Source: Candidatus Saccharimonadales bacterium (GTDB taxonomy: Bacteria > Patescibacteriota > Saccharimonadia > QS-5-54-17). From it: a stretch of DNA of 64,000 bases. This document shows positions 12,664-63,577 of this stretch, one piece after another. The DNA lies in the NCBI GenBank assembly GCA_040903985.1, contig JBBDUI010000002.1:262038-326037 (forward strand), in the 5' to 3' direction. Every line of letters starts with the position of its first letter. Within the stretch, counting starts at the first letter, position 1. The notes under the pieces were generated by a model. It had not been told where the DNA came from and did no database searches. It was given only the letters and a program-made list of their open reading frames with translations. The position numbers and the translations under genes are program-made.

Positions 12664-13076
12664 TGGTGGAGCTGCGGGGAATTGCACCCCGGTCCGCAAG
12701 TTAACTTCCTATCCCGCTACGAGCGTATTCGGTTTGAAAAGTTTCAGATATTTCCCGATCAAACCGACAAAAAAGAACTATCTATAGTCACAGTAAAGCT
12801 TCAGGCGGTTCGCCTCTGACGTACGAACTGCCCTACACCGGATAAATGTCACCAGATTTCCGTTATCCAGTAATCACGGAATTGATGGCTGCGGCGGTTA
12901 GGCTACAGCTGTCGCAAGGTTTCGAGGAGTCATAGCCTCAGAAACTGAAGCTAGAAAACTGTTCACCTTACTAGTAAATGTGTTTACATTTATTTGGGTT
13001 GGTCCAACTAACGTGTAGACCGAACCGGCTCGCTGAATAGGTTGTCAAAATACTCACGTCGAAGCTAATCAGCCCC
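12664..13076 (-). ncRNA. ssrA: tmRNA (SsrA), standard one-piece form, about 413 nt
   Basis: The 5' end GGGGCUGAUUAGCUUCGACG... matches the E. coli 5' end (GGGGCUGAUUCUGGAUUCGACGGG). The 3' end ...CGGGGUGCAAUUCCCCGCAGCUCCACCA gives a T-arm and an acceptor strand with the G3·U70 alanine identity pair. An internal tag frame ends ...GCG ACA GCU GUA GCC UAA. Confidence 0.85.
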
Positions 13077-18950: not shown

Positions 18951-18973
18951 ATAAATTTCATAAATTAGCCATT

Positions 18974-19001
18974 AAAAAACTCCGGATTTCCGGAGTTTTT
19001 T
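18974..19001. terminator. Bidirectional rho-independent terminator (AAAAAACTCCGGA-TT-TCCGGAGTTTTTT)
   Basis: Perfect 7-bp stem flanked by an A-run and a T-run. It terminates rplT on the plus strand and abuts the RNase P RNA 3' end on the minus strand. Confidence 0.7.
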
Positions 19002-19237
19002 AATGCAAGATCGCCTGTAAGCCGGATTCTGTTTGCTTAAACGCCCGTTGCCGAGCGTGAAGCAAGATGACTATCTCTCTAGTCCCGCGATTGCTCGTGG
19101 GATCAAGCGGGTAAAATATGTTTGCCACCGCCTGGGCTAAGCGTATGGTGACTCACTCCTTGCAGCGGACGGGGTTTACCTCCTGCCGATGTCACCACCG
19201 GTAGCTGTGGGCTCTTACCCCACTCCTTTCACCCTTA

Positions 19238-19367
19238 CCCCGCACCTGAAAATGATAGTGCTGGCGCACAAATGTAACCTCATACCAACCATATAACAGG
19301 GGTGATTATACCTTTACTGTTGCACGGAAGTTGATGATTGCAAGATCAATCATTTTCAGGTGCGGGG
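19238..19367. mobile_element. Miniature (non-coding) copy of the TIR element. It has 19-bp perfect terminal inverted repeats CCCCGCACCTGAAAATGAT / ATCATTTTCAGGTGCGGGG and sits at the P12 position of rnpB.
   Basis: The TIRs are identical to those of the GIY-YIG element 90 bp away. The 92-bp interior has no ORF. Confidence 0.7.
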
Positions 19368-19453
19368 CGGTATCGTTTCTGTGGCACTTTCCCTAAGGTC
19401 TCCCTCGGTTGTCGTTAACAACCGTCCTGCCCATGCGCTGTCCGGACTTTCCT

Positions 19454-19752
19454 CCCCGCACCTGAAAATGCTAACCAAAGCCGAGCCTCTTCTTCAGCTC
19501 TACAAGTCCTCGACCATAACGTTTGAGCTTACGCTCTCGTTCTTGAGCCAAGGCTTTGGTTGTAAAAGCCTCATAGTAGACAAGCTCCCAGGGTACACCA
19601 CTCTTTGTGGACGTATTCATACCTTGGTTATGTTGATGAAATCGCCGTTTCAAATCTGCCGTAGATCCGATATAGAACGTACCTGTCTTTTTACTGCGCA
19701 AGAGGTAGACATAATACATAGCGATTTCATCATAGCATTTTCAGGTGCGGGG
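19454..19752. mobile_element. TIR-bounded GIY-YIG element (299 bp). It has 20-bp perfect TIRs CCCCGCACCTGAAAATGCTA / TAGCATTTTCAGGTGCGGGG and sits at the P3 position of rnpB.
   Basis: The perfect 20-bp inverted repeats enclose one 82-aa GIY-YIG ORF. The ORF stop codon lies inside the TIR. Homologous elements are at 63276..63577 and (miniature) 19238..19367. Confidence 0.75.
19471..19719 (-). CDS. GIY-YIG nuclease-family protein (YhbQ/COG2827-like, 82 aa) encoded inside the TIR element
   Basis: MYYVYLLRSKKTGTFYIGSTADLKRRFHQHNQG... has the GIY...YIG motifs and a conserved R and H/N, as in E. coli YhbQ. It is on the same strand as rnpB. Confidence 0.75.
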   Translation of the reverse strand: MYYVYLLRSKKTGTFYIGSTADLKRRFHQHNQGMNTSTKSGVPWELVYYEAFTTKALAQERERKLKRYGRGLVELKKRLGFG

Positions 19753-19794
19753 CAGCCATCCAGCGATCTTGCAAGGGAAAATTATAGGCTAGAG

Positions 19795-20490
19795 CTAGCC
19801 GTTTTGCAACTTAGCTTCTTCGTCTAGAATGATGTTCACCTGCTCATCAGCTAAGGTGTTATGTTCGCGGTATACATGCCTGAAAGTCACATTCCCGATC
19901 TCCTCGGCCAACACCTTGATCGAATTATATACCGGCCATAATTCCTTATTTTTCACCTTGAATATGCCATTTAACTGGTTAGCTACTAGTAAACTATCCA
20001 TACAGAAGTCGATAGCAGTGGGCTTAAACTTCCGAGCAGCCTCCAGGGCGTGTTTGACTGCTTGGTATTCGGCCTGATTGTTAGTAGTTATACCGAGATA
20101 CTGGCCGCCCTGCTCTAGGAGCTTGTCCTCATTTTCAGTTAAGATGACGAAGCCGCTAGCCGACGGACCGGGGTTTCCGCGAGAACCACCATCGGAATAA
20201 ATTCTAAGTTTCGTAGTATTTTCTACACTGTTTTCAGTAGTAACTGAATTTTTATTTAAAGCGGGCTCAATATTTTGTCGGGACTGTAAAGCCGTTAGAG
20301 CATCACGCCAAACATCCTTACTCTCACGGCTTTTTGATATAAGCTCTTTCGATCCATCCGGATGCAGGCCATAGATGTGGTGGCCTTTTTTGATGATGGC
20401 TATCCCCTGCTGCAAGGCCGCTAGTGCGACCGTTTCCCGTTTGGTATGTGTTGGTTTTGCGGCTGACATCTGTCTCATTATATCAGACAC
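19795..20490 (-). CDS. rnhA: Ribonuclease HI with an N-terminal extension
   Basis: IYSDGGSRGNPGPSASGFVI...NNQAEYQAV...CMDSLLVANQ...HVYREHNTLAD matches the RNase H DEDD catalytic-residue pattern. The stop is about 19 nt from the RNase P RNA 5' end. Confidence 0.8.
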   Translation of the reverse strand: MSDIMRQMSAAKPTHTKRETVALAALQQGIAIIKKGHHIYGLHPDGSKELISKSRESKDVWRDALTALQSRQNIEPALNKNSVTTENSVENTTKLRIYSDGGSRGNPGPSASGFVILTENEDKLLEQGGQYLGITTNNQAEYQAVKHALEAARKFKPTAIDFCMDSLLVANQLNGIFKVKNKELWPVYNSIKVLAEEIGNVTFRHVYREHNTLADEQVNIILDEEAKLQNG

Positions 20491-63275: not shown

Positions 63276-63577
63276 CCCCGCACTTGAAAACGTTAACGAA
63301 AGCCAAGCCGTTTCTTGAGCTCGACTAAACCACGACCGTAACGCTTTAGTTCGCGTTCTCGCTCTAAAGCCAGGGCTTTCGATGGGAACGCTTCGTAATA
63401 GACGAGCTCCCATGGAATGCCACTCTTAGTCGCTTTACTGCGACCTAGGTTGTGTTGTTTGAATCGCTGCTTGAGATCTGCCGTGGAGCCGATATAAAAA
63501 GACTCATCTTTCTGACTCTGCAACAGGTACACAATAGTACATGAAGCGATTCTAACATAACGTTTTCAGGTGCGGGG
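63276..63577. mobile_element. Third copy of the TIR-bounded GIY-YIG element (302 bp). Its TIRs are CCCCGCACTTGAAAACGTTA / TAACGTTTTCAGGTGCGGGG, and it sits 26 bp upstream of the rpsF start.
   Basis: The 20-bp TIRs have one T/C difference and are homologous to the TIRs in rnpB. The element encloses a homologous 79-aa GIY-YIG ORF whose stop codon again lies inside the TIR. Confidence 0.7.
63293..63532 (-). CDS. GIY-YIG nuclease-family protein (YhbQ/COG2827-like), about three-quarters identical by eye to the copy at 19471..19719
   Basis: (V)YLLQSQKDESFYIGSTADLKQRFKQHNLG...RYGRGLVELKKRLGF. It has an apparent GTG start. A 1-nt indel relative to copy A removes the MYY N-terminus. Confidence 0.65.
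   Translation of the reverse strand: MYLLQSQKDESFYIGSTADLKQRFKQHNLGRSKATKSGIPWELVYYEAFPSKALALERERELKRYGRGLVELKKRLGFR

Follow-up and report, generated by a model that had tools for sequence, protein, structure and literature searches.

A nuclease gene within a hairpin-bounded, probably mobile element in the RNase P RNA gene of uncultured Saccharibacteria

We analyzed 64,000 nucleotides (64 kb; hereafter, the window) of contig JBBDUI010000002.1, from assembly GCA_040903985.1 of a Candidatus Saccharimonadales bacterium, in which the RNase P RNA gene, rnpB, carries two long hairpins with shared ends, one in place of helix P3 and one in helix P12. The P3 hairpin encloses an open reading frame (ORF) for a predicted GIY-YIG nuclease. 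Sequence comparison makes it probable that the locus is the functional rnpB of a member of the Saccharibacteria (Candidate Phyla Radiation (CPR)/Patescibacteria) colonised by a hairpin-bounded element, and we hold with equal confidence that this element is a mobile pairing of an Ssn-like nuclease with its hairpin, which would survive in the peripheral helices of a ribozyme and in the 5' leaders of housekeeping operons. The arrangement recurs in many related uncultured bacteria, so that an essential RNA seems to host a mobile hairpin element and not be destroyed by it. A literature search returned no report of a nuclease gene, ORF or hairpin-repeat family inside a bacterial rnpB.

The RNase P RNA gene of the window

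The features of the locus, and of a further copy of the element elsewhere in the window, are these:

19781..19809, minus strand: rnpB promoter, TTGCAA, 17-nt spacer, TATAAT; 10/12 consensus positions matched
19005..19772, minus strand: type A rnpB with both inserts included, ~768 nt, placed by RF00010, P1/P2, fold and synteny
19772-19761, minus strand: P1 5' strand, GCAAGAUCGCUG, pairing with CAGGCGAUCUUGC at 19017-19005
19760-19754, minus strand: P2 5' strand, GAUGGCU, pairing with AGUCAUC at 19072-19066
19454..19752, minus strand: element 1, hairpin in place of P3, 299 nt; 20-nt arms 100% complementary
19721..19732 with 19634-19645, minus strand: segment of the ORF leader pairing with codons 25-28, 12 nt, 100% complementary
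19471..19719, minus strand, sense to rnpB: ORF of an Ssn-like GIY-YIG protein, 82 aa (PF01541, E=4.7e-18)
19442..19453, minus strand: J3/4-P4 5' strand, AGGAAAGUCCGG, immediately 3' of element 1
19238..19367, minus strand: element 2, ORF-less hairpin copy in P12, 130 nt, within the P12 loop as aligned by cmscan
19065-19033, minus strand: additional 33-nt hairpin at the P19 position, outside the CCCCGCACC family, between the 3' strands of P2 and P4
19018..19032, minus strand: P4 3' strand, ACAGAAUCCGGCUUA, from the cmscan alignment
18970..19005, minus strand: intrinsic terminator common to rnpB and the convergent rplT, 16-bp stem then T run
63276..63577, minus strand: third copy, ORF-bearing, in the 5' leader of rpsF-ssb-rpsR; fold z=-7.6
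63609-63604 and 63250, minus strand: TATAAT and rpsF ATG of that leader

A cmscan search of the window returned one RF00010 match, at 19002-19492 of the minus strand (202.2 bits, E=5e-64; gathering threshold 100 bits). The match spans model positions 1-367, the first ~45 of which are forced into the end of the ORF; cmscan misplaces P1 and P2 because the model fails to span the P3 insert of 299 nt. Reading of the sequence places the true 5' strands of both helices upstream of this insert. P1 comprises 12 bp (duplex -20.6 kcal/mol) and begins 8 nt beyond the end of the promoter's -10 box, and the 7-bp P2, which bridges the insert, covaries strongly across 18 sequences (columns 16-23 with 336-343). 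In the minimum free energy (MFE) fold of the entire 774-nt transcript (z=-8.8), P1 closes the molecule and the inserts form two separate long hairpins.

A preliminary description of this DNA, made from its letters, had proposed that a type A RNase P RNA of 360 nt is left once the two elements are taken out. The RNA is intact (202 bits), but 345 nt remain when the two elements are taken out completely. The conserved RNase P RNA blocks that it named (AGGAAAGUCCGG, GGUAAGGGUGAAAGG and ACAGAAUCCGGCUUA) are present. For a count of base pairs, each insert was trimmed to its 9-bp stem base and the RNA was aligned with 17 relatives; 68 of the 72 pairs of the RNAalifold consensus form in the trimmed window RNA, against 67-72 in the 17 uninterrupted relatives.

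The convergent order of rplT and rnpB is conserved among the Saccharibacteria loci retrieved via ribosomal protein L20 (the best match of the L20 search of genome contigs was 70% identical). Insert-free counterparts were sought in these related genomes and found at the same syntenic site in 17 of 18 loci, as uninterrupted rnpB genes of 327-356 nt (210-264 bits). Aligned with the 17 relatives, the extra DNA of the window falls exactly at the P3 hairpin, at P12 and at the P19 position. The last of these had escaped the preliminary description, which knew only two extra hairpins; its other statements at the level of sequence about rnpB and the elements hold, coordinates included, save for the length given above. 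The 33-nt hairpin at the P19 position is missing in 8 close relatives, and the position holds a 165-nt insert, a 110-nt CCCAGCACC hairpin and a 53-nt CCCCGCACC hairpin in three other rnpB genes (L219, L226 and L168, introduced below). The P19 position is a third recurrent insertion site of rnpB.

The 6249 bp around rnpB are 100% identical in Logan assembly L001, which may or may not be independent of the source of the window. The gene immediately upstream of rnpB (19795-20490, minus strand) encodes an RNase H/RVT_3-like protein that is extended by about 90 aa at its N terminus; its orthologue in L219 and L226 has a Pterin_4a domain instead.

The hairpin family and its nuclease gene

Element 1 is a simple hairpin (-119.9 kcal/mol, z=-7.9 against shuffled controls) that stands where relatives have a P3 of 15-35 nt, and element 2 folds at -54.4 kcal/mol (z=-7.0 against shuffled controls). 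It had been proposed that the 299-bp element replaces P3, with terminal inverted repeats (TIRs) forming a perfect 20-bp stem, and that the 130-bp element sits at P12, and both placements were borne out. The 17-nt ends of elements 1 and 2 are identical on both arms (6 matches in the window, 0 expected), and the family counts three copies in the window where chance predicts 0. The stem base is conserved as CCCCGCACC at the 5' end and GGTGCGGGG at the 3' end, and CCCCGCACCTGAAAATG...CATTTTCAGGTGCGGGG is the candidate substrate hairpin of the predicted nuclease. Element stems are perfect over 15-24 bp, a length compatible with the hypothesis of the preliminary description that RNase III might cut them and leave a fragmented ribozyme. 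Their loops contain either little (forms of 27-140 nt) or the 82-aa GIY-YIG gene (forms of 299-303 nt). GIY-YIG coding remnants were sought in the ORF-less hairpins, including the P12 copy of the window, and none was detected, so that a view of these hairpins as decayed autonomous copies is unsupported.

No direct repeat suggestive of a target-site duplication is common to the flanks of the three window copies, no transposase was found (the sole ORF of the element is that of the GIY-YIG nuclease), and no intron family was reported in the window at gathering thresholds. We rejected a miniature inverted-repeat transposable element or insertion sequence with TIRs because target-site duplication and transposase are lacking and P3 is replaced, not split, and we rejected a homing endonuclease in a self-splicing intron because the window has no intron family and the protein no extra DNA-binding domain. 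Concerted evolution of the TIRs within a genome was also dropped, as arm identity within the window (17-20/22) is no higher than that between genomes.

The GIY-YIG domain covers all 82 aa of the ORF product, with no separate DNA-binding domain, and residues Y5, Y16, G18, R26, H30, N31, E50 and E62 do not vary among 11 homologues. In every pairwise comparison of Saccharibacteria copies of the ORF, the proportion of synonymous differences (pS) is 0.6-1.0 and saturated, whereas that of nonsynonymous differences (pN) is 0.08-0.21, with values of 0.13-0.2 for the ORF of element 1. Synonymous saturation makes dN/dS not computable for most pairs, and we use the qualitative conclusion alone: judged from these proportions, the ORF is under strong purifying selection. 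Because pS is saturated while pN is low, this selection appears to have lasted long, also between the P3 copies of the window and of L219, which are orthologous.

By homology, the predicted nuclease appears nearest to the Ssn family of site-specific single-stranded DNA (ssDNA) nucleases, of which ssnA is the founding member (Chenal et al. 2025, PMC11893778), and not to the classical homing endonucleases. A tblastn search of PLSDB matched a Neisseria gonorrhoeae gene (E=5e-6) on a chromosome filed there as a plasmid. Five exact NTS repeats surround this gene, which we therefore take to be the gonococcal ssnA homologue; the comparison with SsnA rests on this identification by flanking repeats. 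The window ORF and the NTS-flanked homologue are 38% identical (BLASTP E=7e-15, hhalign probability 98.5%), at 82 aa against about 94 aa for the Ssn family (cd10448). Among solved structures, UPF0213 proteins and the nuclease domain of SLX1 come closest; UPF0213 entries in the PDB reach 29 bits only and are outscored by the gonococcal homologue. Ssn genes are typically flanked by cognate hairpins, next to which the enzyme cuts ssDNA, and it still cuts when the hairpin is divided into two strands or lengthened at the position of its loop (Chenal et al. 2025, PMC11893778); an architecture with the gene in the loop fits this tolerance. The element resembles the Ssn/SRM/NTS systems further in its single-domain GIY-YIG protein of about 80-95 aa, in a gene enclosed by inverted repeats that can form hairpins and have a CCCGC/GCGGG-type core and in the presence of ORF-less repeat copies elsewhere in the genome. 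It differs from them in location, as NTS repeats are almost never inside genes and the repeats described here lie in an essential ribozyme gene and in 5' leaders.

In the MFE fold of element 1, the ORF leader pairs with codons 25-28 (K-R-R-F-H-Q) in a helix that leaves the start codon buried, and compensated versions of this helix occur in L219 (AAAUCGUUU/AAACGAUUU core) and in copy 3 of the window (GAAUCGCU/AGCGAUUC). The conserved helix probably damps translation of the ORF, whose leader has no Shine-Dalgarno sequence. No promoter-like site (full -35/-10) was scored on the rnpB strand inside element 1, and an extended -10-like motif, TGcTATGAT (TGnTATGAT), lies 14 nt ahead of the ORF ATG. 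The ORF is probably expressed from either the strong rnpB promoter or this weak internal motif. Expression from the rnpB promoter is suggested because the ORF is always co-oriented with rnpB and no full internal promoter was scored, and transcription within the RNase P precursor is plausible.

The ORF-bearing form is also found outside rnpB, in elements of 299-303 nt that lie in sense to the genes downstream of them. In copy 3, in the leader of rpsF-ssb-rpsR, a 1-nt insertion breaks the frame of the ATG (63542), and a GTG at 63532 opens a 79-aa ORF (63293-63532) that keeps the invariant Tyr. The region around this copy matches GCA_040876815.1 ('Candidatus Saccharimonadales bacterium') over the stretch read, and the rpsF-leader site is also occupied in another species (L225). 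A third location, upstream of an operon of a hypothetical gene (91-98 aa) and dinB, is occupied in L002 (1318-1620), L215 (1463-1767) and L213 (1465-1768). A TATAAT lies ~25-30 nt upstream of the element at the window rpsF copy and in L002 and L215, and is harder to discern in L213 and L225. The ends of the dinB-site copies, CCCAGCAC/GTGCTGGG, represent a compensatory double change, and the sequences just outside the TIRs pair as well (GUGAGG/CCUCAC, with a G-U variant in L213). Downstream of the dinB-site element follow ~250 nt of non-coding leader; the dinB-upstream locus of the relatives had no Rfam match at E<=1, and this may be an undescribed structured leader.

The tmRNA gene of the window (12664-13076, minus strand; RF00023, 112.7 bits, 413 nt) has no CCCCGCACC motif; its central part aligns poorly, with long unaligned stretches.

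Recurrence in rnpB genes of uncultured bacteria

Scanning of JGI metagenomes for the junction 'RGTGCGGRG + AGGAAAGTCC' gave at least 80 loci, and at least 30 distinct rnpB genes have a P3 hairpin of 62-314 nt on the CCCCGCACC/GGUGCGGGG base. Among the matches listed, from these at least 30 rnpB genes, 8 of the P3 hairpins encode the GIY-YIG protein. Besides the close relatives named below, six metagenomic rnpB genes have the ORF in P3. Across the full 22-pair stem, positions 10-19 of which are not selected by the junction search pattern, 92% of cells are paired and covariation reaches 0.625; shuffles give 0.154, and slid controls no more than 0.18. Three close relatives (L219, L222 and L226) were added by look-ups of protein homologues. 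The rnpB genes that best illustrate the variety of occupancy are these:

L219 (GCA_039738715.1): ORF in P3, ~190-nt insert in P12, and the insert at the P19 position
L222: ORF in P3; P12 native and short
L226: P3 native and short; ORF element in P12; CCCAGCACC hairpin at the P19 position
L168 (reverse strand, about 782-1595): hairpins in P3 (with ORF), in the P9 loop, in the P13 loop and at the P19 position
L111: ORF in P3 and a 123-nt hairpin in P12
L112: 27-nt versions of the hairpin in P3 and P12, in opposite orientation

At least 10 rnpB genes hold the ORF, nine of them in P3 (the window, L219, L222, L158, L141, L111, L155, L168 and L109) and one in P12 (L226). The ORF is in sense to rnpB in 10 of 10, which extends to the relatives the co-orientation that the preliminary description had reported for the window. 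The four hairpins of L168 have identical CCCCGCACCUUU ends within a single rnpB. For L111, L168, L109, L136 and L153, which score under the RF00010 gathering threshold, identity as rnpB comes from conserved motifs recognised by eye, whereas cmscan aligned the rnpB of L226 end to end (208 bits) despite the ORF in P12. The suggestion that placement in peripheral helices spares the essential RNA agrees with the 17 insert-free syntenic genes and with the differences in occupancy among relatives.

Comparison of L226 with L222 bears on how the hairpins arrive. The two genes share the same P2 strand and differ in their P3 hairpins, and a target-site duplication is absent, which argues that the native P3 was replaced and not split. 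The earlier term 'insertion' is therefore apt for the position of the elements, at P3 and P12, but not for the event, as nothing was inserted into a native P3. Replacement of P3 together with the absence of a target-site duplication favours recombination or gene conversion over cut-and-paste transposition.

In L222 (1446-2100), rnpB lies on the rplT strand and the RNase H neighbour is kept, which indicates a local inversion around rnpB.

Mechanism, alternatives and precedents

At the RNA level, the element would be an extended helix at exposed, length-variable hairpins, namely P3 and P12, joined in relatives by P9, P13 and the P19 position. Because it sits at solvent-exposed variable hairpins, the catalytic core would be untouched and the ribozyme would keep working. 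At the DNA level, we propose that the predicted nuclease recognises the hairpin when replication or natural transformation presents it in ssDNA, and that the break at the hairpin is repaired by copying of a filled allele or site. Repair of this kind would replace whole native hairpins and would leave no target-site duplications.

A bolder form of this proposal seems to us rather unlikely: the primary transcript of RNase P would serve both as the essential ribozyme and as the sole mRNA of the Ssn-like nuclease, it would be cut at the 20-bp stems into a ribozyme of two or three pieces that P1, P2 and the stem bases would keep joined, and the element would home to exposed rnpB hairpins, with RNase P RNA as its preferred safe harbour.

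Several observations weigh against a mobile Ssn-like element in a working rnpB. The copies of the ORF diverge without clustering by locus, so that the direction and frequency of movement are not reconstructable. The 9-bp base is invariant in the metagenome set partly because the search pattern required it, and the G-U pairs of the stem outnumber A-C pairs (16 versus 7), which weakly favours selection at the RNA level over selection at the DNA level (p=0.09). The SRM consensus HGTCWY N0-2 YYVSBRH N0-5 WNVSBRG N0-2 RNCYNB is matched nowhere in the 64-kb window (0 matches; shuffle mean 0.33); the same regular expression hits 6 sites around the gonococcal gene. Ssn genes sit between separate hairpins of 20-50 nt, whereas in the element a single long hairpin holds the gene in its loop. 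Copy number is low, unlike that of Ssn/NTS repeats: the window holds three element copies in 64 kb, and nothing in it points to repeats by the hundred as in Neisseria. Lastly, rnpB copy number was assessed in the 64-kb window only, and a second rnpB elsewhere is possible.

An alternative that we consider unlikely is that the nuclease gene has been domesticated by the host, for instance for control of transforming ssDNA as with SsnA of Neisseria, and is expressed under the constitutive promoters of rnpB and of the rpsF and dinB leaders, the hairpins being regulatory or recognition sites. The strong purifying selection and long-term retention of the ORF would be expected of such a gene, as would conservation of the helix that occludes translation, three conserved resident loci with TATAAT 25-30 nt upstream (less clear in L213 and L225) and the small number of copies in the window; domestication of Ssn has indeed been proposed in Neisseria (Chenal et al. 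2025, PMC11893778). However, the ORF-less copies, the colonisation of several helices in L168 and the variable occupancy resemble spread and not regulation, and two to three paralogues in a genome of <1 Mb would be odd for a housekeeping gene.

Less likely still, the long P3 and P12 could be ordinary lineage-specific expansion segments of CPR bacteria in which an ORF happens to lie, with nothing mobile about them. Diverged RNase P RNAs with large helix extensions have been reported from CPR bacteria, with no ORF or repeat described (Lui et al. 2021, PMC8172020), the mini inserts have no coding remnant, and P12 carries an insert in both the window and L219. Against this stand the 17 terminal nucleotides that are identical between the P3 and P12 copies and the four hairpins of L168 with the same ends, as well as the 299-303-nt hairpin with its ORF at sites outside rnpB (the rpsF leader and upstream of dinB), the lack of any insert in 17 relatives and the difference in the occupied helix among close relatives.

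That the locus is a disrupted pseudogene, with another rnpB copy or a protein-only RNase P doing the work, we regard as highly improbable: although cmscan fails to align P1-P3 across the insert, the score of the window is lower than those of relatives (202 versus 210-264 bits) and the visible portion of the genome is 64 kb, such a reading is strongly argued against by the formation of 68/72 pairs and the covariation of P2 across the insert, and it also runs counter to the intact core helices and conserved nucleotides, the pairing of P1 and P2 across the insert, the promoter and terminator in place, the persistence of the filled arrangement across species with synonymous-saturated ORFs and the full-length alignment of L226 (208 bits) with its ORF in P12.

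The preferred reading, a mobile hairpin element with an Ssn-like nuclease, has its nearest precedent in the non-intron GIY-YIG inserts of CPR rRNA genes. Such insertion sequences in 16S and 23S rRNA of CPR bacteria go back to Brown et al. 2015 (as cited in PMC11270868). The GIY-YIG proteins of CPR rRNA insertions are all found in non-intron inserts at stem-loops and are regarded as outside classical homing (Tsurumaki et al. 2024, PMC11270868). Compared by description only, these inserts and the element share a CPR host, a GIY-YIG ORF in a structural RNA gene without a group I or II intron, and poorly conserved sites at the tips or bases of stem-loops; they differ in the host gene, which is rRNA there and rnpB here, and a hairpin-end signature, ORF-less derivatives and a relation to Ssn are not described for them.

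More distant parallels exist. Like the element, the intervening sequences (IVSs) in helices 25 and 45 of 23S rRNA are extended hairpins that replace the tip of a peripheral helix of an essential RNA and are tolerated without splicing. IVSs are excised by RNase III, leaving a fragmented rRNA, while in rnpB such cleavage is only hypothetical, and we know of no IVS that encodes a GIY-YIG nuclease. Rickettsia palindromic elements and REP/RAYT systems also place short palindromic repeats where the product tolerates them, including in RNA genes; REP/RAYT has a nuclease gene associated with hairpin repeats, but the enzyme is a Y1 transposase, whereas here it is a GIY-YIG protein and the gene itself is within the hairpin. 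The homing endonucleases of group I introns (e.g., I-TevI) are likewise GIY-YIG genes nested in conserved essential genes and might share with the element a spread by break repair via conserved flanks. In contrast to them, the element has no intron and no DNA-binding domain, and tolerance would come from helix extension and not from splicing.

What appears to be new here is a family of nuclease gene and hairpin in rnpB; Ssn/hairpin-repeat systems and non-intron inserts in structural RNA genes of CPR bacteria are known. Where protein genes lie in essential RNA genes, self-splicing introns normally keep them from doing harm, and here the same end would be reached by an extended helix, apparently unspliced. 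Whether the transcript of an essential ribozyme is also an mRNA, or is naturally fragmented, is a question that these genes raise. The finding links the recently described Ssn ssDNA nucleases to the lifestyle of a mobile element and accounts for covariance models that miss or truncate rnpB genes of CPR bacteria. With it, the puzzle posed by the non-intron GIY-YIG inserts in rRNA genes of CPR bacteria reaches a third structural RNA class. Present in as many as four helices of a single RNase P RNA, and repeatedly so across uncultured CPR lineages, the inserts provide a natural map of the sites in RNase P RNA that tolerate inserts of 100-300 nt.

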